DNA from: Candidatus Saccharimonadota bacterium
GTDB taxonomy: Bacteria; Pseudomonadota; Alphaproteobacteria; CAJXXZ01; 1604HC
NCBI RefSeq assembly: GCF_008189405.1
Contig: NZ_CP043316.1
Coordinates: 150,001-182,000 of the forward strand
Direction: 5' to 3'
DNA: 32,000 nucleotides
In this document: one piece after another, positions 207-32,000 of the stretch
How the letters are laid out: the number at the start of each line of letters is the position of its first letter
How positions within the stretch are numbered: the stretch's first letter is position 1
Program-made: the position numbers and the translations under genes
The notes under the pieces: generated by a model
Database searches by the model: none
Told to the model about the DNA's origin: nothing
Seen by the model: only the letters and a program-made list of their open reading frames with translations

Positions 207-1082
207 ATGTACAGAAAAATCTTATTGACTGTGAGCGCTTTGATGATCACTGAATCTGCTCAGGGTAAAGTTAATAGCTGTTATAGCAAAAGAAGAGTCA
301 ATGCTGCTTTGTATGCTGGAGGAGGAGCAAGATTCCAAGGTTCTAAGGCTAAAGAAATAGAGACAAAATATACAGGTAAATTAGCTAATATTACATTGCC
401 TGTTAATAGCACTCAAGAATTTGATTTCGAGCAGAATGGAAAAGCTGGATATTTCTTTGGGCGATTGGGAGCTTTTGCTGTAATGCCTATTTCTTCATCA
501 TTCAAGGCTGGAATAGATGTGTTTGGTGATATTGGAAAAAGAAAATCTTACTTTAATAATGTGCATGAGTTAGTTAAGGGTAAATCTCCAGAAGTAGTGC
601 CTGCACCTGATCCTGATCCTAATCCTAATAACACTCCTCAAGCTATCCCTGTTACACAAGCAACAGGTGATATTGGATCTGATAAAGGAGAATCACTATT
701 AAGAATGACCCATATGTTCAGTGTTTACACAGGATTAAGAATGCATTACAGCTTCTCAGATTCTATGGACGCTCACATTGGGCTTGGTGGTATGATTTCT
801 GATGCTAAGTATAGAATCGAATCATTTGGATCTACTAAATATACAGAAACAAGTAGAAAATATGAATTTGGTGGTTACTTGAAAGCTGGAATTTTATGGA
901 CATTCGCTAATAAATTCTTTGTTGCTGGAGATATTATTGGTCAAATGAGAGCAAATAAAAAAATTGACATTAATGCATTCACTATAGCGGATAAGACAGA
1001 GGCTCATAATTTGAAATTCAAGAGAGCAGGTATGTTTGGAGTTAATGGTTCAATTACTGCTGGTATTCACTTGATCAAATAA
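207..1082 (+). CDS. Outer-membrane beta-barrel surface protein, paralog 1 of a four-member family in this window; carries a Pro-rich loop insertion
   Basis: SD-like GAGAGGA about 10 nt upstream of the ATG. N-terminal signal-like segment MYRKILLTVSALMITESAQG. Alternating amphipathic Gly/aromatic-rich strands (GYFFGRLGAFAV, FGGYLKAGILWTFANKFFVAGD). C-terminal block FGVNGSITAGIHLIK aligns with FNGSLGLGVNILG of ORF 18162..18830 and GASVGFTVNLMK of ORF 14322..14996. Confidence 0.6.
   Translation: MYRKILLTVSALMITESAQGKVNSCYSKRRVNAALYAGGGARFQGSKAKEIETKYTGKLANITLPVNSTQEFDFEQNGKAGYFFGRLGAFAVMPISSSFKAGIDVFGDIGKRKSYFNNVHELVKGKSPEVVPAPDPDPNPNNTPQAIPVTQATGDIGSDKGESLLRMTHMFSVYTGLRMHYSFSDSMDAHIGLGGMISDAKYRIESFGSTKYTETSRKYEFGGYLKAGILWTFANKFFVAGDIIGQMRANKKIDINAFTIADKTEAHNLKFKRAGMFGVNGSITAGIHLIK
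606..629 (+). repeat. In-frame hexanucleotide repeat CCTGAT CCTGAT CCTAAT CCTAAT (encodes PDPDPNPN) inside the surface-protein gene
   Basis: Read directly from the sequence. It lies in the Pro-rich segment SPEVVPAPDPDPNPNNTPQAIP, which the shorter paralog at 18162..18830 lacks. Confidence 0.9.
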
Positions 1083-5126: not shown

Positions 5127-5615
5127 TTATATTTGTAAAAATCCATTGTTGTACAATAGGCTTAGTGCATTTCGTTTAGAGCCTGATTTTAGTATGATGC
5201 TTTGCCCTGATAATCTAAGAAAATTTTGATAATCCATTAATTTAGGAGCGAATATTTCCCTATCTTCATCACTCATACGCTTCACCATTATCCATTCTTC
5301 AGCAATTTTATGCTTCTGATTTGCTTTTTTAATGGCATAGTAGATTTTTGTACGCTTACCTTCTAATGTTTTTAATAATTCATATGCATCTTTTTCATTC
5401 GTTGGTGGAGCAAAATAGTTACGCCCATAAAACATAAAACTGATAAAAAAGTTGTCAGTTTCATTAGGAAAAGCTTGCCTGATTAGCTCATATGGATTTA
5501 ATTTGCTTTTATTTGTTAATTCAGGGCTCCATGTTTGTACTGAAATAGATGCTGAGTGTTTTTTAATTTGATCGGTTAAGAAAAAATCCCAAACTGGCAT
5601 ATGTATTGTATTCAT
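5127..5615 (-). CDS. Hypothetical protein (162 aa), no recognisable family
   Basis: Intact ORF with non-repetitive, balanced composition, flanked by long AT-rich spacers. I recognise no motif and see no signal peptide. Confidence 0.4.
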   Translation of the reverse strand: MNTIHMPVWDFFLTDQIKKHSASISVQTWSPELTNKSKLNPYELIRQAFPNETDNFFISFMFYGRNYFAPPTNEKDAYELLKTLEGKRTKIYYAIKKANQKHKIAEEWIMVKRMSDEDREIFAPKLMDYQNFLRLSGQSIILKSGSKRNALSLLYNNGFLQI

Positions 5616-5840: not shown

Positions 5841-6077
5841 TTATGTTGAGTTTTCTAATTTGTTTTTTATATCATTAAGCATGTTTTGTAAATCATCTGT
5901 TTCTAATTCTGTAATATTTTGAATGCTTTTGTTTTTTATGCAAAAATACCCATTGCATTTTGCCATCATTTCTTGAGCTTTTAATGCAACGCTGAGTAAG
6001 TTTTCTTTGATCGCTTTCTTATAGATAGTTTTTAAGTTTTGCATGAATTCTTCTTTCATATTTACCTCCAAATTCAT
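5841..6077 (-). CDS. Hypothetical small protein (78 aa)
   Basis: Intact ORF with GGAGG-like sequence upstream on the minus strand (GAATTTGGAGGTAAATATG internal Met option). Helical-looking, Lys/Asn-rich. No family assignable. Confidence 0.3.
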   Translation of the reverse strand: MNLEVNMKEEFMQNLKTIYKKAIKENLLSVALKAQEMMAKCNGYFCIKNKSIQNITELETDDLQNMLNDIKNKLENST

Positions 6078-6292
6078 TCTCTCATTACAAGGTTAATGAA
6101 TTCAAACTAAATATTTTATTATACAATATATTAAGAAAAATGCAATAATAAAATGTATACTTAATGACAATGAAATAAGTATTACACACCTCTAGCTAAC
6201 AACTAAAATACATCAAATTTACCAATAATTTACTATATATTTATTTTTTGTAAATGGTTTGTAGTTAAGATAAAAGAAATTAGGAGTAATAT

Positions 6293-8644
6293 ATGAATAA
6301 CAAATCACGTGTTTTACTGATATGTATGGCGTGTTCAATTAATAATGTTGAATCATCTTTTGAATCAGTGTTTAAAAATAATTGGAAACCAGTTCTAGAA
6401 GAAAATTTTGATAGATATTATGCAATTAAAAGAGCATCTTTAATGTTCGAAGGTGATATTGAAGTTGTTGCTAAATTAAAGAAATCAAAAAATGTATATT
6501 TGCCATTTGCATTTATCAATAATCATTTAATTCACTTAGATAATGGATTTGATTTTGAAATTGGTGCAGAAGCAAAACAAAGGATCGCAGATTCTACAAA
6601 TCATTTGTTAATAGAAAAAGCAGCTTTTTCTAAAAATTCTGAATATGTAGTACTAGAAGGTACTGCTGCATCAGCAAGTACAAAATATAAAAATTCTCAA
6701 GTACTGAAAAAAAGAATAGATCTTGATTCCGATAGAATCATAGATCTTACAGATCAAATCATAAAATTCTTAGATGAACAAGGATTTGAAAGAAAATTGG
6801 ATACTCAAAACCAGATTGATTTAGCTGATAACCTATCAATTATTAGCACTGGTAGCAAGCCACGCTCTAGATCTGCATCTATAGCATCGCTGAATTCTGG
6901 TCATAACACACCTAAATCTCCGTCTAGTCCAACATTAAGAAGTAGAACTAGTTCTGTAGCTTCTAATGCTTCATCTCCTAAAAGAAGCGTAGTGATCAAT
7001 GATAAAAATCTTGATGTAAAAGAAATGCCAGAGATAAGCCCTACAAATTCTTCAGGAAGCGCAGCAGAGCTAATCGTACAACAATTGAGTGCACAAAGTA
7101 GTCTTACAATTGAAACTGGAGATCAAAATACCACCCCTCCATCAATTTTGAGTTCAGAAACCAGTAATGCTAATACTTTTGATGTTATATCTGGAGAAAT
7201 AAGCCCAAGAAATGCAAATCAATTAGTTAATTCTGATTCTGGAGAAAGATTGGAAAGCTCAGACTCTACAGTGCAATCTGTTGTACAACAAATGGCAGAT
7301 AGTGATCAAGATATGCACAATCTATTACAAGGTAATGGAGAAGAATCTGTATTATCAATAGGTTCAGTAACTTCAGCGGCTTCAGCAGCTTCAAATCCTA
7401 ATGCATTAAGTTCGTTGATAAGGGGTGATCAAGCAGAAAATATGGAGCGTACTAATACACAAACAAACCCACAGATTGATACTGGTTTGCAGCAAATAAT
7501 TGACCAATTAGGAGTTCAAGGTAACGATGATAGTGTTGTTGAAGCAGGAGATAGATCTCCAAAAAGTAAGATGCTTGATCATGTTTCTATGAAGCTTGAA
7601 AGAGAGCATAGTTTGAGTGAAGAAGCCTTAAATAATGATAAAAAGTCCATCAATGATATTATTAGAGAGCAAAGAGCTCAAGCGAATGCAAATGGACAAA
7701 AGATTGCAGATTTATTTAATAAGGGTAATCAAAGCATGACAATAGAATCTAAAGTAAAATCTATTATGCAAGAAATTACAAATCACTCCTCAGTTAGTGA
7801 GTCTGCTGATATATTTCAAGATACAATGAACCTTTCTGATAAGACAATCACATATATAAAAGATAATGCTAAATTATTTGCAGATAAAAAATTACTTGCA
7901 GAATTTGTAGTAGGTCAAGAAAAATCTAATACATTATCTGGTGTATTGTTTAGAGATAGTCAAATAGGTAAGGGTAGGTATGGATTAGTTCACTACAATG
8001 CAGATGGATCTACCACATTGCAAGTTAAAGTTCCAAAAAACATTGATTCTACATTTGATTCAGCATTAAAAGCAATGAGCCATTCTTTACACTCAATGCT
8101 TACAATGAAAAAAGATAATGCAATCACATATATTTTGATTCATGTGAGAAAAGATAGCAGACATCTTAATAAGTTAATAGTGAAAGATAATCATGGAAAA
8201 ACTATGAATCCATTTATTAACCCTAATTTTAAATTATTGCTTAATGCTTATGACTCACAAAATGATGGTGTGGATTTCTTGCCTTGCATGATTCACGTAA
8301 CTGAAATGACACCAAGTTTTGCTGAAATTTCAGATATGACTAAATTCATGAATGGCGAAACTATCAATAACAAAGAGTTAAAGAAATCTATAAATGTGAA
8401 AGATTCGTTAAGAGTAAAAGATGATGTAAGATCTATTTATGAGTACATTTTAAAGAAATTGCCTAAATCTTATAAGAATAGTATATTAGTGCTTTCAGAT
8501 ATTGATAATAAGTTTCATTCATACCTTAAAAATGAATTTGGAATCAATGTTGCTGGAAATGATGGTGAATACAATTTCAGAGAAGTAAATACATTGCACA
8601 TTATGCATGAAATTTTGAAAGCTTCTAAAATTTATAAAGCATAA
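6293..8644 (+). CDS. Large orphan protein (783 aa): N-terminal domain, Ser/Thr/Pro/Arg-rich disordered core, structured C-terminal domain; candidate secreted or host-targeted effector
   Basis: SD AGGAG 8 nt upstream of the ATG. Long ORF in an AT-rich genome where random ORFs are short. Low-complexity core roughly 6845-7570 (SKPRSRSASIASLNSGHNTPKSPSSPTLRSRTSSVASNASSPKRS...). The C-terminal 300 aa are non-repetitive. Weakly signal-like N-terminus MNNKSRVLLICMACSINN. Confidence 0.6.
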   Translation: MNNKSRVLLICMACSINNVESSFESVFKNNWKPVLEENFDRYYAIKRASLMFEGDIEVVAKLKKSKNVYLPFAFINNHLIHLDNGFDFEIGAEAKQRIADSTNHLLIEKAAFSKNSEYVVLEGTAASASTKYKNSQVLKKRIDLDSDRIIDLTDQIIKFLDEQGFERKLDTQNQIDLADNLSIISTGSKPRSRSASIASLNSGHNTPKSPSSPTLRSRTSSVASNASSPKRSVVINDKNLDVKEMPEISPTNSSGSAAELIVQQLSAQSSLTIETGDQNTTPPSILSSETSNANTFDVISGEISPRNANQLVNSDSGERLESSDSTVQSVVQQMADSDQDMHNLLQGNGEESVLSIGSVTSAASAASNPNALSSLIRGDQAENMERTNTQTNPQIDTGLQQIIDQLGVQGNDDSVVEAGDRSPKSKMLDHVSMKLEREHSLSEEALNNDKKSINDIIREQRAQANANGQKIADLFNKGNQSMTIESKVKSIMQEITNHSSVSESADIFQDTMNLSDKTITYIKDNAKLFADKKLLAEFVVGQEKSNTLSGVLFRDSQIGKGRYGLVHYNADGSTTLQVKVPKNIDSTFDSALKAMSHSLHSMLTMKKDNAITYILIHVRKDSRHLNKLIVKDNHGKTMNPFINPNFKLLLNAYDSQNDGVDFLPCMIHVTEMTPSFAEISDMTKFMNGETINNKELKKSINVKDSLRVKDDVRSIYEYILKKLPKSYKNSILVLSDIDNKFHSYLKNEFGINVAGNDGEYNFREVNTLHIMHEILKASKIYKA

Positions 8645-8987: not shown

Positions 8988-9060
8988 GCCTGGATAGCTC
9001 AGTCGGTAGAGCAGTAGATTGAAGATCTACGTGTCGCTGGTTCGATTCCAGCTCTAGGCA
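8988..9060 (+). tRNA. tRNA-Phe (anticodon GAA)
   Basis: Cloverleaf folded by hand. Acceptor GCCTGGA/TCTAGGC (one G-U pair). D arm GCTC-AGTCGGTA-GAGC. Anticodon arm GTAGA-TTGAAGA-TCTAC. T arm GCTGG-TTCGATT-CCAGC. Discriminator A. Near-identical in layout to E. coli tRNA-Phe. No encoded CCA. Confidence 0.95.
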
Positions 9061-10011: not shown

Positions 10012-11652
10012 TTATATATTTTCAACAGGTTGAGTGTTTTGTATGTCTTCTATATCATCACTATCATCTGTATCTTCATTTTCGCCAATATCATTTTCAT
10101 CCACGTGCTCATTATTTTCATCATCTATATCTTCATCATCTCTATTAATTATGTATGATTCATCTTCCCAAGTGACTCTTCGAAAACTCATGATAATATC
10201 TTCAATTCTTCTGATATCACGTTTGCTAAACCTTTCATCAAAGAAATCCATCATCTCATCAGCACTTAAATTGGCCAAATCTTCGTCTGTCAAAATTCCA
10301 TTTTGTGCTAGTACTGAAACCTCTTCAATTAGAAGGTTATGATCAATATCAGAGCTAATTTCACTTCCTAGATCTTTCGCTATTTTTTGATGCTTTTTCA
10401 TATGCTGAGTATATGCTCTATCAATTATGCTTTGTATGCCTTCATAAGATAATGTAATGCCCTCAATTTCTTCAATATCACTAACTGTAGAGTTTTTGAT
10501 TACTTCTAATGAAGTAATTCCATTTTCTATGAATAATTCAATATTTTCTTCATCTAGCCCGAATTCTGTAAACTCTTTTCTTGCTTCTTCAGCAATACGT
10601 TTTGTTTCCTCAGCATGCTCAGTCTCAGATGAAATCTTCAACCTACACCTAGCTAGTTTTCTTGTTAATCTAACATTTTGACCATCACGACCAATTGCAA
10701 TGTGCATGTAATCATCCTTTACAATTAATTCAAGATCAGCATCCCCCTTAACAACAACTTTCACAACTTCTGCTGGGTATATAGAGTTCATTACTAAAGT
10801 CACAACATCTTCAGACCAATGGATAACATCAATCTTTTCATCGTTGATTTCTTGCATGATTGTTTTGATTCTAAGCCCACCTTTACCGATACATGATCCA
10901 ATTGGATCGATATCTTCATCAGTTGAGATTACAGCAACTTTTGCTTTGCTTCCTGGCTCTCTTGAAATTCCTTTTATGAAAATTGATTCATTGATTTCTG
11001 GGATAGTCTCTTCAAAAAGGCATTCTAAAAATCCTGGATGCTTTCTAGACAAAAAGATCTGAGGGCCTTTTTCATTATTTTTTACTTGATATATGTATGC
11101 TTTGATTTCTTGATGCATTTTGAAATGTTCTTCTGCAATTAATTCTGAGGATGGTAAGTATCCTTCTCCAATTTTCAAATCTAGAACTACATTACCAAAT
11201 TCAAACCTTTTGATTTTTGCAGATACAATTGTACCTTCTTTGTGTTCAAATGATGCAAATTCTCTTTCTTTTTCAAGTTGAGAAATTCTTATATGAACTG
11301 ATTTTCTTACAGCTGATGCTGCAGTCCTCATAAAAGGCATTGAAGTTAAGTTTCCAGATTCTAAAAGCTCTTTTACATGATCTCCGATTTGTGAATCAGG
11401 ATTCTGTTTTAATGCATCTTCTAATGAAATTTCATAAATATCTTCAGGATTTTCAGATACAGTTTTAATCGCGTAAGTAGATATGCATCCACTATCAGGG
11501 TGTATTTTTACATCTATTGGAATGTTTCCTTTGGATTTTCCAATAACTTCTTTAATAGCATCTTCAACTACTTGTAATAATAAACTTATATCTAGATTTT
11601 TTTCTCTTGATAATTCAAACAAACTATCGATTAATGCATCATTTTTAGACAT
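10012..11652 (-). CDS. nusA: Transcription termination/antitermination factor NusA with an acidic C-terminal tail
   Basis: N-terminal domain (ELSREKNLDISLLLQVVEDAIKEV), S1 domain (GTIVSAKIKRFEFGNVVLDL), two KH domains (DPIGSCIGKGGLRIKTIMQEI; IAIGRDGQNVRLTRKLA). The tail is DDEDIDDENNEHVDENDIGENEDTDDSDDIEDI. Confidence 0.95.
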   Translation of the reverse strand: MSKNDALIDSLFELSREKNLDISLLLQVVEDAIKEVIGKSKGNIPIDVKIHPDSGCISTYAIKTVSENPEDIYEISLEDALKQNPDSQIGDHVKELLESGNLTSMPFMRTAASAVRKSVHIRISQLEKEREFASFEHKEGTIVSAKIKRFEFGNVVLDLKIGEGYLPSSELIAEEHFKMHQEIKAYIYQVKNNEKGPQIFLSRKHPGFLECLFEETIPEINESIFIKGISREPGSKAKVAVISTDEDIDPIGSCIGKGGLRIKTIMQEINDEKIDVIHWSEDVVTLVMNSIYPAEVVKVVVKGDADLELIVKDDYMHIAIGRDGQNVRLTRKLARCRLKISSETEHAEETKRIAEEARKEFTEFGLDEENIELFIENGITSLEVIKNSTVSDIEEIEGITLSYEGIQSIIDRAYTQHMKKHQKIAKDLGSEISSDIDHNLLIEEVSVLAQNGILTDEDLANLSADEMMDFFDERFSKRDIRRIEDIIMSFRRVTWEDESYIINRDDEDIDDENNEHVDENDIGENEDTDDSDDIEDIQNTQPVENI

Positions 11653-14321: not shown

Positions 14322-14996
14322 TTATTTCATTAAATTAACGGTGAATCCAACACTTGCTCCAAATTCTTTTGGTGGTGTGATCGATATTATTGCACTACCA
14401 GTTTTTAAGGAGATATTTGTATAGTATTTTATTTTTGCTTCACAAAACATACCAAATATGTCATTTTTTCTATAATGTAATCCTAAAGCTGATCCAAAAC
14501 CATTTGTCCAAATACCCTTTATATTACTATGCTTCGTGTAACCGTTATACCTTTTGAGATTTGAAAATAACTTTCCATATGCAGATAAGTTATTTTTTAT
14601 ATGAAATCTTAAAAATAACCCCATAGATAAATCTATGAATGATTTTAATTGAAACTGGCTCTTAGAAGAAGTGTTGCTAGCATCATCTGTCATGGTTAGA
14701 TCTTTATATTGGTCATGAACATCTACACCAATACATCCACCAATGTTTTTATTGGCCATTATAACACCTTCTAATGACATATGCATATTGCTCATGAATG
14801 CATCTTTATGATTTTTCATTGATATAATTGCTTTTTGTCCTAGTGCTGATACTTTCAAATCTGTAAGTCCTTGTGCTCCAACTCCTACCTTCAAATATGC
14901 ACGATCATATTTACCTGTACATGTAGCAGTATTTGTTTTGCTGTGATTAAATAATGCGCAAACCATTACTGCAATTGCTATTTTTTTATTATTCAT
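14322..14996 (-). CDS. Outer-membrane beta-barrel surface protein, paralog 2 (tandem pair member)
   Basis: Signal-like MNNKKIAIAVMVCALFNHS. Shares long collinear blocks with ORF 15239..15925 (HMSLEGVIMANKNIGG vs HLSLGSIIMATKHIGY; TNGFGSALGLHYRKN vs TNGFGAALGVHYKKN; ITPPKEFGASVGFTVNLMK vs ITPPKEFSTSIGFIVNMLK). Confidence 0.55.
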   Translation of the reverse strand: MNNKKIAIAVMVCALFNHSKTNTATCTGKYDRAYLKVGVGAQGLTDLKVSALGQKAIISMKNHKDAFMSNMHMSLEGVIMANKNIGGCIGVDVHDQYKDLTMTDDASNTSSKSQFQLKSFIDLSMGLFLRFHIKNNLSAYGKLFSNLKRYNGYTKHSNIKGIWTNGFGSALGLHYRKNDIFGMFCEAKIKYYTNISLKTGSAIISITPPKEFGASVGFTVNLMK

Positions 14997-15238
14997 GAAT
15001 GTACACTATGCAATAAAAGTTAATATGATATTAAATATAAAGCATAGAATTTATGTATAATCTCAATTATTTTTAGCAGGTAGAGATTAATCTTATGGAA
15101 GTATAATTCATGCTATTCAGAAGTTAATGGTTTATGTATTTCGGGTATGTTCATGTGGTGTATGTGCCTAATGTAGGTAAAAATATAATAAATTGCAGCT
15201 CATGTAGTATAAATAGTGTATGTAACTCAAGTATGAGA

Positions 15239-15925
15239 TCAATTGTGTTTCTTAAGCATATTTACTATAAACCCTATACTTGTTGAAAACTCTTTTGGAG
15301 GTGTGATTCTACTATTTTCTTCTCTATCCCATTCTAAAGGGATAAATTTCTTCATTTGCACTTCCCAGAAGATTCCACATTTCCTATTTTTTTTGTAATG
15401 TACTCCTAAAGCAGCGCCAAACCCATTTGTGCAGAAAGCAGAATTTGATATATTATTATGATCGTATCCTTTCAACACTTTCATTTCATATTTCTTGAAT
15501 GATAAGGATAGCTTTGTATATATGAACAAGTTGTGTTTTATATTGTGCTTAAGAAACAATCCATGAGATATGCAGATAAATGATTTTAAAAATGCTATAT
15601 TAGTTGGAGTATTTTTTTGTATAATCTCTCTTTTTTGATTGTGTATATTAGATTCAATATAATATCCAATATGTTTGGTAGCCATTATAATACTTCCAAG
15701 AGAAAGATGCACATTATTGCATATTGTATTTACCCTTTTCCTCATTTGTATATGACTTTGTGGAGAATCGAAAAATTGTTTAGGATGTGTTAGTCCATAC
15801 AATCCAATTCCAAATGTGCAGCAAACTCGATCTGATAGAGAATGAGAACTGTAATCAGAATCAGAATTAATGCTATAGTAACTGAATAAATATATTATTG
15901 ATGAGATGGCTATCACATGGTTCAT
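15239..15925 (-). CDS. Outer-membrane beta-barrel surface protein, paralog 3 (tandem pair member, more divergent; possibly decaying)
   Basis: Collinear similarity to ORF 14322..14996 (see that entry). The N-terminus MNHVIAISSIIYLFSYYS is a poor signal peptide with no basic n-region. Confidence 0.45.
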   Translation of the reverse strand: MNHVIAISSIIYLFSYYSINSDSDYSSHSLSDRVCCTFGIGLYGLTHPKQFFDSPQSHIQMRKRVNTICNNVHLSLGSIIMATKHIGYYIESNIHNQKREIIQKNTPTNIAFLKSFICISHGLFLKHNIKHNLFIYTKLSLSFKKYEMKVLKGYDHNNISNSAFCTNGFGAALGVHYKKNRKCGIFWEVQMKKFIPLEWDREENSRITPPKEFSTSIGFIVNMLKKHN

Positions 15926-16039
15926 GCCTTCGATTATATATAATATATAGGTATGTGTAAATTATAGGATATAATTTTCATTAACTTGATGTTAACATTA
16001 TACTGTTAGAATTATAATAAATTCAAAGAGGGTGAAAAA

Positions 16040-16582
16040 ATGTATTATAAATCTTTTGATTTTATCGTGTTGGTTGCAACATCTTACTTTGTTGTATCAG
16101 GGTTGATAAGAGGATTTTTCGGAGAAATAACAAAAATACTTTCAATTGGGATATCAATAGCTGTTTCTGTATTTGCAATGTTGAAATTTTGTATGTTGGG
16201 GAATAAATTAGGGAGCGTGGCATATTATTCATCTGTTTTTGGTGTTCCAATTATAATATTTCTAATTGTAGGTTATATACTGCTAGGTATCTCATCCAAA
16301 CTGAGCAATATGATTGGCAAAAGTCATTTCCGAAGTTTAGATAGATTTTTAGGAATAATATTAGGGTTAATAAAAATTTTTATATTAGTGGTTTTGTTTA
16401 TTAAAATATCTGATGAGTTTTATCCAGATTTTACTCAATATATAGAAAAATCCATTGTATATAAATGGGTATCTTCAAGCCATGTAATTGCTAAATATAT
16501 TAATAATATGCTTATGAATGCTTATGATTTTATAGGCACTTGTTTTGATAAATTAATATGTTGTTTTACAAAACAGAATTAA
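16040..16582 (+). CDS. cvpA: CvpA-family inner-membrane protein (colicin V production protein family)
   Basis: SD GAGGGTG. About 180 aa with four hydrophobic spans. N-terminus FDFIVLVATSYFVVSGLIRGFFGEITKILS fits the CvpA signature (D-x-I...G-x-x-R-G-F). Confidence 0.7.
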   Translation: MYYKSFDFIVLVATSYFVVSGLIRGFFGEITKILSIGISIAVSVFAMLKFCMLGNKLGSVAYYSSVFGVPIIIFLIVGYILLGISSKLSNMIGKSHFRSLDRFLGIILGLIKIFILVVLFIKISDEFYPDFTQYIEKSIVYKWVSSSHVIAKYINNMLMNAYDFIGTCFDKLICCFTKQN

Positions 16583-16693
16583 ATATAAATGGCATTAAAT
16601 CATAATTGTTATATTCATAATTACACTATCACTGAATATATTTGATTGTAATATGATTGTTGTGGAAATTCATGATATATATACAATATAGGT

Positions 16694-17419
16694 ATGGATC
16701 CAGTAGCTTTTACAGTCTTTTCTATCAAAGTACATTGGTATGGAATAGCATATTTTACTTCGTTTTTAATTGTTAATTACTTAACAATACGCAGATTGTC
16801 ATATATATATAGTGCAAAACATATAGAAAAAGCATTGTCTTTTGCATTTTTAGGAATGATTATAGGTGGAAGGTTAGGGTATATCATGCTATATGAGCCT
16901 AGCAAGTTATTAAATGTAATGGAGGCAATTGCAATATGGAATGGTGGAATGGCTGCTTATGGTGGGTTTATAGGTGGGATTAGTTTTCTATATTTTAAGT
17001 CTAAATTATATAAAATTAAGATAATTGATATGTTAAATACTTTGGCTTGCTATATGCCAATAGCATTGTTTTTTGGAAGAGTTGCAAATTGGATCAATAA
17101 TGAAATTCCTGGCAAAGTGCTATATGATAATGCTCAGAATATCATTTTTCATCATCCTGTGATTTTATACAGCATATTATTTGAGGGAGTTATTTTGTAT
17201 TTTCTAATTAATTTTAAAAATAACTTAAGACTGAATAGCATTACAGAGAGCAATTTATTTTTCATTTCATACGGGGTTATACGATTAGTATTAGATTATT
17301 TCAGAGCAGTAGAATCATCTATGTTTTACTGTTTAACGTATGGGCAGGTATTTTCCATTATGATGATTATATTTGCTGTGATTATGCATCATTATAAATC
17401 AAAACTATCTACAGATTAG
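16694..17419 (+). CDS. lgt: Prolipoprotein diacylglyceryl transferase
   Basis: Lgt signatures present: DPVAF...HWYGIAYF, IIGGRLGYIMLYEP, GGMAAYGGFIGG, FGRVANWINNEIPG. Confidence 0.9.
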   Translation: MDPVAFTVFSIKVHWYGIAYFTSFLIVNYLTIRRLSYIYSAKHIEKALSFAFLGMIIGGRLGYIMLYEPSKLLNVMEAIAIWNGGMAAYGGFIGGISFLYFKSKLYKIKIIDMLNTLACYMPIALFFGRVANWINNEIPGKVLYDNAQNIIFHHPVILYSILFEGVILYFLINFKNNLRLNSITESNLFFISYGVIRLVLDYFRAVESSMFYCLTYGQVFSIMMIIFAVIMHHYKSKLSTD

Positions 17420-17928
17420 ACAGTACTATATAAATTAATTTTGGTTATATATAGCTTAAGTTACAGAGGAGAAAAGTACTTATGTTGTTTGTGCAGAAAA
17501 ACTATACTATTTATACAATATATTTATGATATTAGTTTTGGAATATGTCGCATATACATTATATAGATTTTTATAGTCGATTAATTATTTTGCTGAAATT
17601 GTATTTAATGTTTGATAAGAAAAAAATCAATTGACTGTTAGCTTTTATATTGAACAATGTATTATTATGAATATTAGATTAAAACAGATTTATATAAGTT
17701 AAAAAAAGTTTTATTAAGGTTCATTATCAAGTAGTTATTTAATTAGGTGATTATGCTTTCTTACCAAAAATAAAACTATCCATAAAAGTAGAATATAATA
17801 CACAATAAATGTATGCATAAACAAGAGTAATAAAATAAGTAATAATTCGAAATGGAATATAATCACATAGCAATAAAATAATTGTGTTCACAAATTATAT
17901 ATTGTATAGTGATAATTAATAATTACAT

Positions 17929-18161: not shown

Positions 18162-18830
18162 TTAACCTAAGATGTTAACTCCCAAACCTAAGCTTCCATT
18201 AAACTCAACAGATTTTTTAGCATCGAATTTAGTTTTAGCATCATTTTTAAATGAATTTTCTTTCTTCATGATGTAATCAACATTGAACTCACCAGATACG
18301 AATAGTCTTGCGTTGAAATGGTAGTTCAGACCTAAGTTTCCACCGAATCCCATGTAATGCTTTTTATCAGCATCAGCAGCATTGATAATAGAATCTGATG
18401 TAGCTGAGATTTTGATGTTTCTGTAAGCAAACAAAGCTGCAGCATGTACAGAAATTTTGTCATTCAATTTGTATTGAACAGCTGGTCCAGCATTGAAACC
18501 AAAGTTAGACTTTGAAGTAAATAATACTTTATCAGCATCATTTTTATGATTTTTCTTGTCAGAACCCAAGTCAGCAGAAACTTTAATTCCGAACTTGTTC
18601 ATGAATAGATTAGCTGTTGCTCTACCTGCAAAGTAAGAAGCATTTCCATCTTTTTTGAATTCACCACCGAATGATACATCTTTGTTTGCGTCTGCAGCAT
18701 CTTTAATACTACCTGAGATTTCTACATTTGTTTTTCTAACTACACCACCAGCAACAACTGAAGCAGTAACTTTAGCTGACACATGACTGGAAAGTGACAA
18801 TAGCGCTAAGAATAAGAATTTGTTATTCAT
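18162..18830 (-). CDS. Outer-membrane beta-barrel surface protein, paralog 4 (shortest, probably the prototype)
   Basis: The ORF extends to 18869. The internal start MNNKFLFLALLSLSSHVSAKV (ATG at 18830) gives a classic signal peptide and is preceded by AAGGGGA. Beta-strand pattern (GFNAGPAVQYKLNDKISVHAAALFAYR; GFGGNLGLNYHFNARLFVSGEFNVDY). Followed by terminator-like hairpins. Confidence 0.65.
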   Translation of the reverse strand: MNNKFLFLALLSLSSHVSAKVTASVVAGGVVRKTNVEISGSIKDAADANKDVSFGGEFKKDGNASYFAGRATANLFMNKFGIKVSADLGSDKKNHKNDADKVLFTSKSNFGFNAGPAVQYKLNDKISVHAAALFAYRNIKISATSDSIINAADADKKHYMGFGGNLGLNYHFNARLFVSGEFNVDYIMKKENSFKNDAKTKFDAKKSVEFNGSLGLGVNILG

Positions 18831-19058
18831 TATATTTAATTCCCCTTTCGAAAAGAACATACTCATCATACAAGAAAATATCTTAGATTAAAATAGGAAA
18901 AAGCAAAAAAATTGTAATAAATTGTGAAAAAATGAGCTTATTTACATATTTTTCTAAACGCTACCATTTAAACTGCTCAATTAATTCATTAAAAATTATC
19001 GAAAAATGCATGAAAATTACTTAATAATAAGTATATTGGAGGTGGGAAAATGGAAAAA

Positions 19059-20671: not shown

Positions 20672-22150
20672 TTAGTGATAATGATTTGTATTTTGCTCTA
20701 CTTTTTGTCTAGCTTGATATACGCTTTTTTCAAAACTTTTATTAATTACTTTTCTATTTCCAATCCTATTTGCTAATTCACCTCTCATATGCATTAGTTT
20801 AAAATATCCTTTGGTGGTTTTTTGGTATGCATCAATTGTTCTTGTATATGCATAAAGAACGCTATTCTCTGCCATAATTACATCATCTATAGAAATTCTT
20901 CGTTTGCCTGCTAAATCAATGTCATTAAGGAATAAGGATTTCTTGGATTTCAAAGCTGCTTCATGGTGATTTAAGGATTTGTTATGCATTTGTAATTCTT
21001 TTTTACTATTTTCCAAATTTGCAAACACATTATAACCAGCAGTAATAGTTTTTCTTACACTCTCTAAATATTTCAATTTAGCTGCATTAATATTTTGACC
21101 ACCTTCTATCATTTTTGACATGCTATCTAACCCTAAGTGGTGAGTTAAAGATAAATCTATAGATCCTTGCCATTTCGCTCCAGTCCTACCATGCGTAGCG
21201 CTGTATTCACCAGATTTTCTTGAATATGTTGTGTCTAAGTTAAAGCTAGGGAGCATGTTCATAATCCCAGATCCAGAAGAAGCAATTATATGCTTTTTAG
21301 AGTAATATTCTTTTTTCAAATCATGAGATCCAAATAATATTTTAGTTTTATTTGTATCCCAATTTCCATAATGAGGGATAGATCCAACTTGTTCAGGTAG
21401 CTTTGTGCCTGGAGACAATACCTCTAATTTATGCCTTAGTACTTTTTCTTGATTTTGATTAACAAATAATTCGATTTCACTGTTTGATAATTCAGCTTCA
21501 GCAGTATGCAAATCAGAAATATTCATTGTACCAGTTTGGATCCTAGCTTTGATTTGTTTGACTAAGTGTCTCCTAGATTGAACAATTCGGTTTTTTAAGT
21601 TTACAGTGGCTTTTTGGCAAATCCAGTCTATTAATGTTTCAACTACTTCTTCTAAGCAAAATTTTGACCAATTTGACCAATATTCCTCTAAATCAGCTTT
21701 TGATTTAATATTTGCAGCAGCAATATCAGTGATGATTGAATTTTTAATTTTTAATAGATGAACTTGAACCTGTTTATTGTGCCACTTTGCTCGGAACTTA
21801 TTATTTGGGATGCTTTTTCCATCGTACATAAACTTATGTTGGGTCGTAAGCTGTGAGTCAATAGAAGGTAAGAATGACAGAATGGATGAGGCATTCTTAG
21901 CTTTTGATGCTGACAATTGAGCTCTAATATATTTGACGTAATTATCAGATTGAATAACTTGAGAAGCCCATTCTTCAATTGCTGATATATCACCTGATGA
22001 AATGAAATTTAGTTCTTTATTATTATATTGCTTGTTTTTGGCTTTATAAGCATTGATTTTATTATTATTGTTGCTTTTGTTTGCAATTAGTGATGATGAA
22101 GCACACAATGTCAGTGCAAGAATACCATTGGAAATATATTTTATAGACAT
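20672..22150 (-). CDS. tolC: TolC-like outer-membrane efflux/secretion channel protein
   Basis: Signal peptide MSIKYISNGILALTLCASSSLIA. Two-repeat helical architecture typical of OEP-family proteins (AQLSASKAKNASSILSFLPSIDSQL; TGTMNISDLHTAEAELSNSEIEL). About 490 aa. The assignment rests on pattern rather than alignment. Confidence 0.65.
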   Translation of the reverse strand: MSIKYISNGILALTLCASSSLIANKSNNNNKINAYKAKNKQYNNKELNFISSGDISAIEEWASQVIQSDNYVKYIRAQLSASKAKNASSILSFLPSIDSQLTTQHKFMYDGKSIPNNKFRAKWHNKQVQVHLLKIKNSIITDIAAANIKSKADLEEYWSNWSKFCLEEVVETLIDWICQKATVNLKNRIVQSRRHLVKQIKARIQTGTMNISDLHTAEAELSNSEIELFVNQNQEKVLRHKLEVLSPGTKLPEQVGSIPHYGNWDTNKTKILFGSHDLKKEYYSKKHIIASSGSGIMNMLPSFNLDTTYSRKSGEYSATHGRTGAKWQGSIDLSLTHHLGLDSMSKMIEGGQNINAAKLKYLESVRKTITAGYNVFANLENSKKELQMHNKSLNHHEAALKSKKSLFLNDIDLAGKRRISIDDVIMAENSVLYAYTRTIDAYQKTTKGYFKLMHMRGELANRIGNRKVINKSFEKSVYQARQKVEQNTNHYH

Positions 22151-27663: not shown

Positions 27664-28248
27664 ATGAAATGTTCATTTAAAGCATTCAGTTTGTTAGAAA
27701 TTAGTTTCGTGCTTATTATTGCTAGTTTACTTATGTTTGGTGGTATGAAAGGAATGCAATTAGTAGAGAAAGCTCGTGTTTATAGAGCTGCATCTGAAAT
27801 GAGATTGTGTTTGACGGCTATAGAATCTTTTAAAATTGAATATGCTCAGCATCCTTGTATATCTAATAGGTTTAATGTAAATACAGTTGTTGGTAGTAGT
27901 AATGCAGGTCCCAATCAGGATCTACAAAAAGTACTTTGGAAGAATCTTCATAAATCTGGATTGATTAAAAGCAGTATAAACAGTGATAGACAATCTCCAT
28001 TGGGTGGATCTTACCATGTTCAATATAGTAAAGGATTTTTTAATATTATAGTAGGATCTGCGAATGATTTTTGTAATAAAGGAGTGTTAACAGGAAAGCA
28101 AGTGTTGTTAATGATTGAATACCTTGATCTAGATGAAGAAGAATATGAAATTGTTACTAAATTAGGAGGCAATTGCATTGTATTGCAAAGTTTATTTGCG
28201 GACTCTCAAGACAGGTACATGATTATCTTTAAAACAAAAGAACATTAA
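27664..28248 (+). CDS. Prepilin-type (type IV pilin / T2SS pseudopilin-like) protein with N-terminal cleavage/methylation motif
   Basis: MKCSFKA|FSLLEISFVLIIASLLMFGG: short basic leader, Phe at +1, Glu at +5, then a hydrophobic helix. Ala replaces the usual Gly at -1. Confidence 0.65.
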   Translation: MKCSFKAFSLLEISFVLIIASLLMFGGMKGMQLVEKARVYRAASEMRLCLTAIESFKIEYAQHPCISNRFNVNTVVGSSNAGPNQDLQKVLWKNLHKSGLIKSSINSDRQSPLGGSYHVQYSKGFFNIIVGSANDFCNKGVLTGKQVLLMIEYLDLDEEEYEIVTKLGGNCIVLQSLFADSQDRYMIIFKTKEH

Positions 28249-28473
28249 TTGAGAAGGTATTAAGGGTAAGGTTAATTTTATTATACAATGAATGTATTAG
28301 GGATGATAAAATATCAAATAATAAAACTAAAACGCAAAATAGAATTATGTGGAATGAAGTATAAAACACAAATCCCAAAGCTATTTATAAAATTAGATAC
28401 AATATTCAAATTCATTGTAATGGCTCTTAAGGTCATAAAACTCTATATTAGAAATAAAACTAAAAAGTTTTAT

Positions 28474-29814
28474 ATGCAGGGCTCCTATATTATATATATT
28501 CGAAAGCTAAAAATTATAAAATCTAAGGTTCTAAAACTAAAGTTATATGCGTTTAGTTTGGTAGAAGTTATTTTTGTGTTAATAGTATTTTCTATGTTAT
28601 CGACTGTTTTAGTTAAAACAAGCAATAGTATGATAAAAGCACACAGAGATAGGGTGACAAAAAATAATGTTGAAAAGATATATAGGGCAATAGGGCGCTT
28701 TGTTGCTATAAATGGATACCTGCCATTTCCTTATCATGGGTGTAATAAGTATATTTATGGATATGATAAAAATAGAAAGTGTGGACAAAACTGTACTCAT
28801 AGCTGTGATGATCCTTATGGTAGTTCAAGTTTTAAGTTAAGTGATATGAAAGAAATGTTAGATATTAATAAGCAAAATTCCGATAATATACCATATACAA
28901 ACCCAAGTAAATTAGGGGTAGGAATTGTGCCGTTTCTTACATTAGATTTACAAGAAAAAGATGTGAAAGATGGTAATGGTAATTATTTTACATATGCAAT
29001 GAATATTATATTAGGCCCAAGAGATGGATATATTTACTTGCCACAAGATCACCCTTGTATCAAACATAATACTGATTTAGTTGATCATGATTATTACGAA
29101 AGATATGAGCCACAATACGAAAAAAAACATGTAAATCAAATTTCTGGATTCTGTGATGTAAGATTTCATACAGATAATGTCAAGTTCTATCATATGATGC
29201 GCAATATGCTTGAACTAAGCACAAGAAATATATATAAGCGCTCTACTTTTTATCAGCATACTGGTATAGAATATAAAGCTGATTTGGCTGATTTAACATG
29301 TTGGATTAAAACAAATCTACATGTTATTAATAATCGTGGATATGATGTTTCAGAATCAATTGAAAAGATGCATTATCATATTAATATGACTATGCCTGCA
29401 GATAAGCTTTTTGATTTAGTGAAATCGTCAGATAAAGACAAGGCATACTTTAATGAAGTAGCAAAAAACATATATTATTTTGTTAGAAAGCAAGAGGATT
29501 TTCAGAAGATTTATAAGGTATGTAATACAATTGCATTTGTTTTGGTTAGTCATGGGCCTAATGGAGGATCTTTGGATAAAAGAATGAATTTTATGAAGAT
29601 TAATGATAAAGTGTCTTGCCCGCATAAAAAGGAGAATGCTACATGCTCAAATCATTTTTATCAAAGTGGAGATGTTGATAAAGGATTTGATGATCAGGTA
29701 TTTTACATATCCAAATTTTCACTTGCATCTGAATATGGTGGATTTCAGTGTAGGCCTTATGATTTGCCATTTTCTATGGAATTAATACATAATAATAAAT
29801 ATAGTTTAGCATGA
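28474..29814 (+). CDS. Very large Cys-rich prepilin-type protein (about 420 aa mature)
   Basis: ...KLKLYA|FSLVEVIFVLIVFSMLSTVLV is a second cleavage/methylation motif, with Phe+1 at 28552 and Glu+5. The ORF opens at 28288, but a class III signal peptide cannot sit 88 aa into a protein. The ATG at 28474 gives a 26-aa leader. At least 16 Cys in the globular part. VLVSHGPNGGS is faintly reminiscent of the GspG C-terminal S-x-G-x-DG motif. The stop overlaps the tadA start (ATGA). Confidence 0.55.
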   Translation: MQGSYIIYIRKLKIIKSKVLKLKLYAFSLVEVIFVLIVFSMLSTVLVKTSNSMIKAHRDRVTKNNVEKIYRAIGRFVAINGYLPFPYHGCNKYIYGYDKNRKCGQNCTHSCDDPYGSSSFKLSDMKEMLDINKQNSDNIPYTNPSKLGVGIVPFLTLDLQEKDVKDGNGNYFTYAMNIILGPRDGYIYLPQDHPCIKHNTDLVDHDYYERYEPQYEKKHVNQISGFCDVRFHTDNVKFYHMMRNMLELSTRNIYKRSTFYQHTGIEYKADLADLTCWIKTNLHVINNRGYDVSESIEKMHYHINMTMPADKLFDLVKSSDKDKAYFNEVAKNIYYFVRKQEDFQKIYKVCNTIAFVLVSHGPNGGSLDKRMNFMKINDKVSCPHKKENATCSNHFYQSGDVDKGFDDQVFYISKFSLASEYGGFQCRPYDLPFSMELIHNNKYSLA

Positions 29815-30242: not shown

Positions 30243-30404
30243 AAAATAACAACTAATCTAAAATATATATAAGTAAAAATTCAATAATATTTGTAAGATT
30301 TTTAATTATTATTATAAAATTATTGTTTTTTATTGTTTTTTGCATAATATTTTGACGAAAACTTAAGTATATTGATCTTAAATAGAATCAAGAGAGGTTT
30401 GCAA

Positions 30405-32000
30405 ATGGGAGAAAGTATACAAAAATCACTATTAAGAGTTAGACCTCCTCGTGTACGTATAACTTACGATGTAGAAACAGGCGGAGCAGTTCAGAAAAAA
30501 GAACTTCCTTTTGTCTTGGGTATCATTTCTGATTTATATGGTCATCAAGAGGAGCGTGTGGACTTTAAAGATAGAAGATTCACTGTCATAGACAGAGATA
30601 ACTTCGAGCACGTTATGGAGTCAATTAATCCAAAATTGAATCTTTCAGTTAATAATGTGTTAGAAGCAAGTAAGGATGATAAGAAAAAGAAAGCTGAAGG
30701 TTCTAATATCGGCTTAGAATTATTTTTCAATACTATGGATGATTTTAATCCAGTTAATATTGTGAGAAAAGTTCCTGAATTAAATGCATTTCTTGAAGAT
30801 CATGAGTTATTAGTAGATTTAGCAACTAAATTAGATTCTAATAATGATTTGAATGATATGTTAGGTAAGGCAATAGCTGATAAAGGAATTGCATCTAAAA
30901 TTGTATCAGAGTCTAAAGATGTTACAAAAGCATCAGCAGAAATGGATAAGATCATTAAGGATAGTGGATTGTTTGTTCCAGATCCTGAAGATAAAGATTC
31001 AACTGAAATTGTAAAATATAGAAAAATGATTGCATCATTATTTAGAAATATGACAGCAGAAACAACAGAAGTTGCGCATCTATATCCATATATGATGGAT
31101 ATGATTGCTAAGATTGATGAGAAGATTTCTTTGCAATTGGATGAAGTGTTGCATCATGAAGATTTCCAAACATTAGAAGCATCCTGGAGAGGAATGCATT
31201 ACGTTGTAATGAATTCAGAAACAGGTACAAGTCTAAAAATCAGAATATTTGCTGCTACTAAAGATGAAGTACAACAAGATCTGGAACGTGCAATAGAGTT
31301 TGACCAAAGCGTATTATTTAGAAGAATTTATGAAGAAGAGTTTGGTACTCTAGGTGGTTCTCCATATTCTTGTTTATTAGGAGATTTCTACATTGGTAAA
31401 AAACCAACAGATGTTTCATTGATTAGAAAAATCAGTCAAGTAGCAGCTGCAGCACATACACCATTTTTGGCTGCTGCAAATCCTAATCTATTTGATTTGA
31501 ATTCTTATAATGAGTTGCATGTCCCAAGAGATTTAAAGAAAATATTTGAAAACTCAGAATTGACTGCATGGAATAGTTTCCGTGATATGGAAGATTCAAG
31601 ATATGTAAACTTATTCTTGCCAAGAGTATTGGTAAGATTACCATATGGTGAAGATACAATTCCAGTAAAGGGTTTCAACTATAATGAAGCTGTAGATGGA
31701 ATGGATAACTCAAAATTCTGTTGGGGTAACCCTGCATATGCAATGGCATTAAGAATCACAACTGCCTTTGCACAATATGGATGGACCGCAGCAATTAGAG
31801 GTATAGAAGGTGGTGGACTTGTTGAAAATCTACCAGCTTATACTTTTAAAACATCTTATGGTGATATTGCATTGAAGTGTCCAACTGAGGTTATGATTAC
31901 TGATAGGCGTGAAAAAGAGTTGAGTGATCTTGGATTTATATCTTTATGTCATAATAAAGGTACAGATAAAGCTGTTTTCTTTAGTGCACAAAGTACACAA
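30405..32000 (+). CDS. tssBC: Type VI secretion contractile sheath: TssB(VipA)-like residues 1 to about 179 and TssC(VipB)-like residues about 180 to 532+ in one uninterrupted ORF (3' partial, continues past the window)
   Basis: I translated it codon by codon from the ATG at 30405 (SD AGAGAGG at 30391-30397) to the end of the window and found no stop codon. TssB signature: LLRVRPPRVRITYDVETGGAVQKKELPFVLGIISDLYGH...FTVIDRDNFEHVM. TssC signatures: QLDEVLHHEDFQTLEASWRGMHYVV, EFDQSVLFRRIYEEEFGTLGGSPYSCLLGDF, AAAAHTPFLAAANP, DSRYVNLFLPRVLVRLPYG, WGNPAYAMALRITTAFAQYGWTAAIRGIEGGG, CPTEVMITDRREKELSDLGFISL. Confidence 0.85.
   Translation, partial: MGESIQKSLLRVRPPRVRITYDVETGGAVQKKELPFVLGIISDLYGHQEERVDFKDRRFTVIDRDNFEHVMESINPKLNLSVNNVLEASKDDKKKKAEGSNIGLELFFNTMDDFNPVNIVRKVPELNAFLEDHELLVDLATKLDSNNDLNDMLGKAIADKGIASKIVSESKDVTKASAEMDKIIKDSGLFVPDPEDKDSTEIVKYRKMIASLFRNMTAETTEVAHLYPYMMDMIAKIDEKISLQLDEVLHHEDFQTLEASWRGMHYVVMNSETGTSLKIRIFAATKDEVQQDLERAIEFDQSVLFRRIYEEEFGTLGGSPYSCLLGDFYIGKKPTDVSLIRKISQVAAAAHTPFLAAANPNLFDLNSYNELHVPRDLKKIFENSELTAWNSFRDMEDSRYVNLFLPRVLVRLPYGEDTIPVKGFNYNEAVDGMDNSKFCWGNPAYAMALRITTAFAQYGWTAAIRGIEGGGLVENLPAYTFKTSYGDIALKCPTEVMITDRREKELSDLGFISLCHNKGTDKAVFFSAQSTQ

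Follow-up and report, generated by a model that had tools for sequence, protein, structure and literature searches.

A modular protein with a probable Sec signal and a conserved C-terminal domain, kept at one locus in five Cytomitobacter-clade genomes

Introduction

What does a large protein that matches no described family do in a bacterium whose entire genome measures 622,378 bp? The question is raised by a gene lying in a stretch of 32,000 nucleotides (the window; positions 150,001 to 182,000 of the forward strand of contig NZ_CP043316.1) of Candidatus (Ca.) Cytomitobacter primus, a Holosporaceae endosymbiont that inhabits the cytoplasm of Diplonema japonicum, a marine diplonemid (PMC13598402; PMC11909080). 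The endosymbionts of diplonemids, with genomes of about 620 kb, carry a large share of unexplained genes that are assumed to mediate the interaction with the host, and many hypothetical putative secreted proteins have been reported in them (George et al., 10.1101/719211). An initial annotation of the window, made from the sequence, had described the 783-amino-acid (aa) product of this gene as an orphan with a eukaryote-like disordered core and a possible protease triad, and had proposed it as a candidate host-targeted effector.

Here, we report that the gene has intact orthologues at the same position in four related genomes, and that its product combines a signal-like N-terminus, a fast-evolving N-terminal domain, a Ser-rich linker and a conserved C-terminal domain. 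With moderate confidence, we read it as a lineage-specific, modular protein that would be exported through the general secretory (Sec) pathway and exposed on the cell surface or secreted, its C-terminal domain being the selected module.

The gene and its orthologues

The coding sequence, taken from the list of open reading frames (ORFs), maps to positions 6293..8644 of the window on the plus strand, from an ATG start to the stop codon, which is included. A Shine-Dalgarno sequence, AGGAG (6282..6286, plus strand), is readable 6 nt upstream of the ATG. Upstream of the gene lies an intergenic spacer of 215 bp; the one downstream, of 343 bp, extends to a tRNA-Phe gene (8988-9060), and the picture of an isolated 783-aa ORF with a good ribosome-binding site is therefore borne out. 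The GC content of the window is about 29%, and the GC content at third codon positions of the gene (0.19) falls inside the range of the neighbouring genes, as for a native gene. The protein is encoded exactly once in each of two assemblies, one of them being OX638200.1 (GCA_951805245.1). Tandem-repeat DNA within the gene amounts to two tiny arrays. A promoter and terminator scan found 24 promoter-like sites against 25.9 expected, AT-rich DNA making such a scan uninformative.

When 1.84 billion representative proteins were searched exhaustively with phmmer (E<=1e-3), exactly four relatives were returned beside the query, with E values from 6e-53 to 6e-29. These are proteins of 718-974 aa, each of them a positional orthologue in another Cytomitobacter-clade genome: Ca. 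C. indipagum CP043315 (974 aa), OZ247489 (718 aa) and OZ247501 (817 aa), both with genomes of about 620 kb, and CP060235 (739 aa; genome of 558 kb). Two of them carry a source name, which is "hypothetical protein", and the other two are unnamed. The relatives' loci were located independently, through the closest relatives of the neighbouring NusA, and then fetched. In all four, the orthologue occupies a syntenic slot with rpmG/nusA on one side and two small divergent genes, of 67-88 aa and 155-165 aa, on the other, and an M23 peptidase gene and serS adjoin the locus. No frameshifted copy, which the initial annotation had named as a sign of decay, was seen among the four orthologues, and all five frames are intact.

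In C. primus, the small companions are a 78-aa gene (5841..6077, minus strand), divergent from the target gene, and a 162-aa gene (5127..5615, minus strand). Both are syntenic in all five genomes, with identities to their orthologues of 43-54% and 39-52%, respectively, and neither has a match in Pfam, NCBIfam or PHROG. In a genome-contig scan, the 162-aa family was found only in the four other Cytomitobacter-clade genomes. Together with the target, the two companions may constitute a clade-specific three-gene block. Kinship of the 162-aa family to the target was considered and rejected, the hhalign probability being 0.2%.

The term orphan is thus contradicted by four orthologues in related genomes, and we attribute it to the search method. 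Specifically, a word-indexed search with the whole protein returned the query alone, because words from the low-complexity linker filled the list of 8000 candidates; orphan calls for proteins of this kind should not rest on indexed searches alone. A word-indexed search with a profile of the C-terminal domain, against a database of size 5.8e9, returned nothing, known members included, and is uninformative. A genome-contig scan with the single target protein found no relatives, a metagenome scan with the C-terminal domain profile found no family member, and no paralogue of the target is present in the window or in the fetched loci. In Ca. Nesciobacter abundans, of the sister genus, nusA is followed directly by radA, with no target-like gene at the syntenic site; the Nesciobacter NusA is 33% identical to that of C. 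primus, and a diverged orthologue elsewhere in that genome is thus possible.

The conserved C-terminal domain

The part of the protein under clear sequence constraint is an alpha/beta domain at its C-terminus (residues 476-783; 7718..8641, plus strand), delimited by alignment and by AlphaFold2 (AF2) modelling. Over about 300 aa, this C-domain shares 34-37% identity with the orthologues, and 35 columns of the five-sequence alignment are invariant. Four conserved elements, all on the plus strand, stand out: a glycine-rich loop, GxG[RK]YGL (residues 559-565; 7967..7987); the sequence VxK[DN]S at the end of strand 3 (residues 618-622; 8144..8158), with V618, K620 and S622 invariant; NDG just before strand 4 (residues 657-659; 8261..8269), with D658 and G659 invariant; and FH-x8-INxAGxD (residues 741-757; 8513..8563), in which F741, H742, I751, N752, A754, G755 and D757 are invariant. 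In addition, E485, Q577, N609, Y613, N643, Y718, E764 and Y781 are the same in all five proteins, and there is no invariant Cys anywhere in the domain.

When AF2 was run on the five-sequence alignment of the C-domain, the best model reached a predicted local distance difference test (pLDDT) score of 81.4 and a predicted template modelling score of 0.81, and all five models scored between 77.5 and 81.4 in pLDDT. The model comprises four N-terminal helices, strands 564-568, 574-579, 610-618 and 660-668 lying between helices, and a helical C-terminal third. In this model, the invariant Gly and polar residues lie mostly in strand-end loops and in the loop between two C-terminal helices, from which we infer that they may form a ligand-binding or catalytic site.

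The fold prediction and structure search that had been suggested for this region gave a confident model without a significant structural neighbour. Foldseek found no match with E<0.5 or template modelling (TM) score>0.17 among 350,542 PDB chains, and none with E<0.3 in BFVD; rows for gyrase/topoisomerase IV, APH(2''), ExoU, pilin and NTF2-like structures were judged to be chance (TM<=0.18). Sequence searches of the family against Pfam, NCBIfam, PHROGs and PDB returned noise only, which agrees with the initial failure to place the protein in any family. The C-domain is therefore without a detectable relative in the sequence and structure resources searched, while a new fold is not established.

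Well-known enzyme signatures include those of patatin (GGGxRG/GxSxG/DGA), SGNH, PLD-HKD, PD-(D/E)xK, SLT (ES...GLMQ...AYNxG), GHKL, Fic and ART. When these were compared informally, by eye, with the invariant residues of the C-domain, residue identity, order and secondary-structure context fitted none of them. A housekeeping protein in disguise (IF2 downstream of nusA, BamA, LptD, PilQ, PBP1, TolA or FtsK) was also considered, and the coding strand, the missing motifs and a predicted alpha/beta domain rather than a barrel argue against it.

The Ser-rich linker

Upstream of the C-domain lies a linker rich in Ser, Thr, Pro, Asn, Gln and Ala (residues 185-475; 6845..7717, plus strand), defined by composition and by AF2. 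In the single-sequence prediction, residues 185 to about 369 are coil (pLDDT 24-30) and residues 370 to about 475 form low-confidence helices. Ser makes up 20% of residues 185-425, where windows of 40 aa contain 50-62% S/T/P/N/Q/G and 15-25% hydrophobic residues. The low-complexity Ser/Thr/Pro/Asn/Gln core recorded by the initial annotation is accordingly real, the peptide quoted there lying at residues 188-232. Across the five orthologues, the linker measures 212-462 aa, contains 14-24% Ser plus Pro, Thr and Ala with few hydrophobic residues, and is net acidic. The linker sequences cannot be aligned between orthologues; their composition is kept.

The same region had been described as dense in RSxS and SP motifs and as resembling eukaryotic kinase substrates. 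The C. primus linker contains one RSxS, five R[ST]x[ST], two RxRxx[ST] and eight [ST]P motifs, and these counts exceed those of composition-preserving shuffles (P = 0.001-0.006). The enrichment thus stands, but with a single literal RSxS the word dense was an overstatement. Comparison with the other orthologues weakens the resemblance further: [ST]P is enriched in three of the five linkers, and the basophilic RxRxx[ST] in C. primus only. One shared 8-mer, SPSSPTLR / SPASPTLR, was the sole one above the local-shuffle expectation, with an uncorrected P of ~0.01 over 10 linker pairs. A conserved phosphorylation-type linear motif was consequently rejected. Since basic-Ser motifs are enriched in C. 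primus only and no motif is conserved, we read the kinase-substrate look of the linker as compositional and species-specific, not as a conserved motif set.

The longest linker, of 462 aa, belongs to the C. indipagum orthologue (positions 14667-17591 of its fetched locus, L004, minus strand) and contains obvious internal repeats, for example SDEEILVDPQTEEEKLDSSDKEILIDSQTGEERLDSSDEETLVE; NTLRSTNAKSAPL / NVLRSTNAEPAPL; and IAESLAEIKDANPIAESLAEARNANPIAE. This linker seems to grow by tandem duplication.

The signal sequence and the N-terminal domain

The protein begins with a predicted Sec-type signal peptide (about residues 1-21; 6293..6355, plus strand), composed of MNNKSR, the hydrophobic VLLICMACSI and NNVES, with a putative cleavage site at its end. 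The call was heuristic, combining n-, h- and c-region criteria with a scan for transmembrane segments. All five family proteins start with MN[NKR]K and carry two K/R residues followed by a 10-residue hydrophobic core, whose mean Kyte-Doolittle hydropathy over 10 residues is 1.9-3.2. The candidate c-regions, which are polar with small residues, are VSS-M, TNT-M, VSC-M, INA-A and VES-S. None of the five has a further transmembrane-like segment, no 19-residue mean exceeding 1.6 at any position. The N-terminus of the target is, moreover, similar to those of the outer-membrane protein (OMP) and Pal that the window also encodes; that of the OMP barrel, for example, reads MNNKFLFLALLSLSSHVSA. We conclude that the N-terminus is probably a cleavable Sec signal; the earlier description of it as ambiguously signal-like was right about the likeness, but the feature is consistent in all five proteins. 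A lipoprotein signal was rejected, because the position of the Cys is not conserved, two of the proteins, P0124 and P0125, lack a Cys in the h-region, and LLIC and CMAC are unlike a lipobox.

Between the signal and the linker lies a fast-evolving N-terminal domain (residues 22-184; 6356..6844, plus strand), which ends in a helix with the semi-conserved sequence LxxxGFE. This N-domain, of about 160-210 aa across the family, shows 13-32% identity and is barely alignable; D145 is its sole invariant residue downstream of the signal, and pairwise BLAST matches are marginal (E 7e-4 to 1e-10 between some pairs). A single-sequence AF2 model of the full-length protein had a pLDDT of 35 and was unusable, and the N-domain is thus without a reliable model.

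Proposed role and alternative explanations

On the basis of these observations, the following mechanism can be proposed. The N-terminal motif, observed in every family member, would send the protein across the inner membrane. The mature protein would then consist of the fast-diverging N-domain and a disordered Ser/Pro/Thr/Ala spacer of 200-460 aa, which may act as a flexible tether and in which composition would be maintained while the sequence is free, length changing by duplication and slippage. The C-terminal alpha/beta domain of about 300 aa would be the functional module, because it is the only part under clear sequence constraint, and its GxG[RK]YGL loop together with K620, S622, D658, H742, N752, D757 and E764 could form the ligand-binding or catalytic site. 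The protein would work at the bacterial surface or be released into the host cytoplasm, possibly via a reduced machinery related to the type II secretion system (T2SS) as well as to type IV pili (T4P). Support for this reading comes from an ORF that is intact in five genomes despite a NusA identity of 48-59%, the restriction of the family to five proteins, the shared N-terminal signal, the kept linker composition, the 35 invariant C-domain columns with the confident AF2 model, and the secreted proteins and reduced T2SS/T4P reported for these genomes.

Several points weigh against it. The signal call is heuristic, and export is read from the sequence; Sec export reaches the periplasm only, so that crossing of the outer membrane is an assumption. 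Comparison of the linkers of the five orthologues revealed no short linear motif that is conserved. Moreover, none of the conserved proteins compared diverges more than the C-domain (identity to orthologues of 34-36%, against 81-86% for RadA, 53-78% for SerRS and 48-59% for NusA), but its values are near those of the envelope proteins (OMP barrel 36-43%, CvpA 37-48%, M23/LysM peptidase 40-45%). Its divergence being that of ordinary envelope proteins, fast evolution does not mark the target as host-facing.

As for the route, the initial annotation had pointed to a type VI secretion system (T6SS) and to a TolC-type channel. Both components are indeed encoded in the window, as a fused TssB-TssC sheath ORF and a TolC-type gene (20672-22150). 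Substrates of T6SS and of TolC-dependent type I secretion systems (T1SS) normally lack an N-terminal signal, and the conserved Sec-type signal of the target therefore argues against these routes. By Pfam, the target contains none of the T6SS effector markers PAAR, MIX, FIX, Rhs or a VgrG/Hcp fusion, and its gene, between rpmG/tRNA-Phe and the two small genes, lies about 21 kb from tssBC. T1SS-substrate features are likewise missing, no RTX or HlyA-type Pfam match being found in a protein that has an N-terminal signal. Among diplonemid symbionts, Sneabacter alone is reported to have a T1SS; Cytomitobacter and Nesciobacter are described as having a reduced T2SS/T4P (George et al., 10.1101/719211). 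Two proteins encoded in the window, of 194 aa (27664-28248, plus strand) and 508 aa (28288-29814, plus strand; an unusual size for a pseudopilin), have no Pfam match and carry weak prepilin/GspG-type N-termini (E 0.01-0.09), and could be what is left of parts of the reduced T2SS/T4P. Sec export followed by a T2SS-like step, surface exposure, and periplasmic residence appear to be the realistic options, among which the data do not discriminate.

The most serious rival to a host-facing factor is a structural role in the envelope, in which the linker would reach across the periplasm, with the domains at its two ends touching different layers, functionally much as in proteins of the TolA, TonB, LpoB or FtsN type, whose flexible linkers are long. 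The Sec-type signal fits this role, as do the surroundings, where envelope genes abound (M23/LysM peptidase, Pal/OmpA, OMP barrel, Lgt and TolC), the envelope-like divergence, a linker free to vary in length, and the lack of any host-like domain or conserved eukaryotic-type motif. Yet the protein is similar to no known envelope family, and a linker of 200-460 residues far exceeds the span of the periplasm. In addition, a single-sequence search found the family in one small clade only, and Nesciobacter has no such gene at the syntenic site; a core component of the envelope would not be expected to show this pattern, although an orthologue could be hidden by extreme divergence. We consider the envelope-structural role somewhat unlikely, but worth keeping in view.

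A stronger form of the host-facing idea holds that the C-domain represents a fold or enzyme family not seen before, which arose in the Cytomitobacter lineage or diverged there until it could no longer be recognised. The protein would enter the host cytoplasm and act on host or mitochondrial targets, with the linker modified by host kinases. We regard this combination as unlikely; a host-targeted effector in the general sense is plausible. If true, the target would be a clade-defining host-manipulation factor for symbionts associated with diplonemid mitochondria.

It is doubtful that the C-domain is a highly divergent nucleotide-binding or kinase-like enzyme, in which a GxGxYGxV loop and a QVKV strand would mimic the G-loop and the beta3 Lys. 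The invariant G559-x-G561-[RK]-Y563-G564-L565 does lie directly before a beta-hairpin and has the lowest pLDDT of the domain, as flexible G-loops do. Among PDB sequences, the family profile matches only the N-lobe of one kinase, BMPR1B (GKGRYGEV...VAVKV), and many sub-threshold Foldseek rows are APH(2'')-Ia chains of the kinase fold. However, these matches are insignificant (E=0.43 for BMPR1B; E 2.7-5.4, probability 0.01-0.02 and TM 0.11 for Foldseek), and none of the many kinase structures in PDB gives a match. The column of the candidate beta3 Lys reads K,K,K,R,H, the invariant columns hold neither an HRD/HxDxxxxN catalytic loop nor a DFG/DxG motif, D661 is not conserved, and Pfam gives no Pkinase or APH match.

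The initial annotation had instead read the C-domain as a cysteine protease or deubiquitinase resembling the CE clan (Ulp1/ChlaDub/YopJ), delivered by the T6SS or TolC route. The residues occur in the order His, Asp, Gln, Cys, with H617 at 8141-8143, D632 at 8186-8188 and C665 at 8285-8287, as it had placed them; Q656, for which it gave no nucleotide position, lies at 8258-8260. In the five-member alignment, however, the corresponding columns read H,Y,N,N,H for H617, D,N,D,D,L for D632, Q,N,E,T,K for Q656 and C,C,S,S,C for C665. None of the four is invariant; Cys is kept in three of the five orthologues, and the two with Ser have Asn at H617. As the proposed catalytic columns are not conserved, the CE-clan hypothesis fails. 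The nucleophile Cys of CE-clan and papain-like enzymes sits at the N-terminus of a helix, but the model places Cys665 inside strand 660-668 (pLDDT 81). Furthermore, Pfam gives no Peptidase_C48, C55, C57 or C79 match at E<=10 with the full protein or any of the five C-domains, the family profile matches no CE-clan protease among the PDB sequences, and hhalign against the E. coli CE-clan protease ElaD yields a probability of 0.1%. The PDB chains compared by Foldseek are expected to include CE-clan structures, and none was matched. The presence of the T6SS sheath gene and tolC in the window lends the delivery part some plausibility, which is countered by a Sec-type signal atypical for such substrates and, for TolC, by the lack of a reported T1SS in Cytomitobacter (10.1101/719211). 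Taken together, this reading is hardly tenable; the most useful outcome is the negative one, and a deubiquitinase-like assignment should not be propagated.

Finally, a decaying ORF or annotation artefact of an AT-rich genome, as might be suspected when no family is detectable outside the clade and low-complexity or barely conserved sequence makes up half of the protein, is scarcely credible, given intact frames of 718-974 codons without frameshifts at one locus in five AT-rich genomes, the wild improbability of a chance 783-codon frame at ~29% GC, a conserved start region and Shine-Dalgarno sequence, and 35 invariant C-domain columns with enough coevolution signal for a confident AF2 fold.

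Other features of the window

The gene order around the target is serS, M23/LysM peptidase, rplU-rpmA, the 162-aa and 78-aa genes (minus strand), the target (plus strand), tRNA-Phe and rpmG. Beyond rpmG follow nusA (minus strand), pal/ompA, radA, cvpA, lgt, the OMP barrel gene, pepA and tolC, and after tolC a MnhA-like antiporter gene, a gene for a transporter of the major facilitator superfamily, ppx, the genes for the two proteins with weak pseudopilin-like N-termini, tadA and the fused TssB-TssC ORF. The latter, apparently a T6SS sheath (VipA-VipB) ORF, on the plus strand, begins ...LLRVRPPRVRITYDVETGG, encodes at least 551 aa and runs off the end of the window (~30350-32000). In C. indipagum (locus L004), a 663-aa gene with VipA, VipB and VipB_2 Pfam matches adjoins the deaminase gene.

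Two further ORFs lack Pfam matches: one of 224 aa (14322-14996, minus strand) with a signal-like N-terminus, and one of 228 aa (15239-15925, minus strand) whose N-terminus is less clearly signal-like. A tblastn search of the four relatives' syntenic loci matched neither of them; there, the interval between radA and pal is occupied by different genes, which are unannotated or weakly resemble OMP barrels. Judged by these comparisons, the two ORFs appear more truly species-specific than the target. A 291-aa ORF (207-1082, plus strand) has no match in Pfam or NCBIfam.

The C-terminal end of NusA (10012-10180, minus strand) is a long, highly acidic tail rich in Asp, Glu and Asn (...DDEDIDDENNEHVDENDIGENEDTDDSDDIEDIQ...), and the PF14520 HhH domain, which is listed for nearly all other alphaproteobacterial matches, is missing from NusA in the Cytomitobacter clade. 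The true start of the OMP beta-barrel ORF (18162-18869, minus strand) is probably an internal Met (MNNKFLFLALLSLSSHVSA...) that lies 13 codons downstream of the first ATG and would provide a canonical signal peptide.

Comparison with known systems

The target locus is one of few large unexplained genes whose position is shared by all five Cytomitobacter-clade genomes available. With domain boundaries, a C-domain model and a list of invariant residues, the protein is now tractable for localisation and biochemistry. Its general importance is limited, since intracellular bacteria commonly have secreted proteins that are lineage-specific and contain disordered linkers.

To the CE-clan proteases (Ulp1/SENP C48, YopJ C55, ChlaDub/SseL/ElaD C79), the likeness is confined to the linear His...Asp...Gln...Cys order in C. 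primus; the protein differs from them in an unconserved triad, a Cys placed in a strand, and the lack of a profile, fold or hhalign match.

The tandem repeat proteins TRP32, TRP47 and TRP120 of Ehrlichia (Anaplasmataceae) have Ser-rich, acidic, fast-evolving disordered regions, which vary through the expansion of repeats and are candidate targets of host modifying enzymes. They share with the target an origin in obligate intracellular alphaproteobacteria and the Ser-rich acidic disordered regions. In contrast, TRPs are T1SS substrates and are not known to have a Sec signal or a conserved globular C-domain of 300 aa; phmmer detects no sequence similarity, and the RSRS/SP patches of the target are not conserved among its orthologues.

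The putative secreted proteins of diplonemid endosymbionts come from the same organisms as the target (George et al., 10.1101/719211). As far as we found, neither the target family, its architecture, its conserved locus and its C-domain model nor a functional assignment has been described.

A last comparison is offered by the 89-kDa and 63-kDa periplasmic proteins of Holospora obtusa, which translocate during infection (Iwatani 2005 and Abamo 2008, as cited in PMC11909080). Exhaustive phmmer search detected no sequence relationship between them and the target, and Cytomitobacter has no described infectious form; the analogy is functional and speculative. Like the target, which is probably Sec-exported, they are large exported proteins of a member of the Holosporaceae without known domains, and they are released towards the host.

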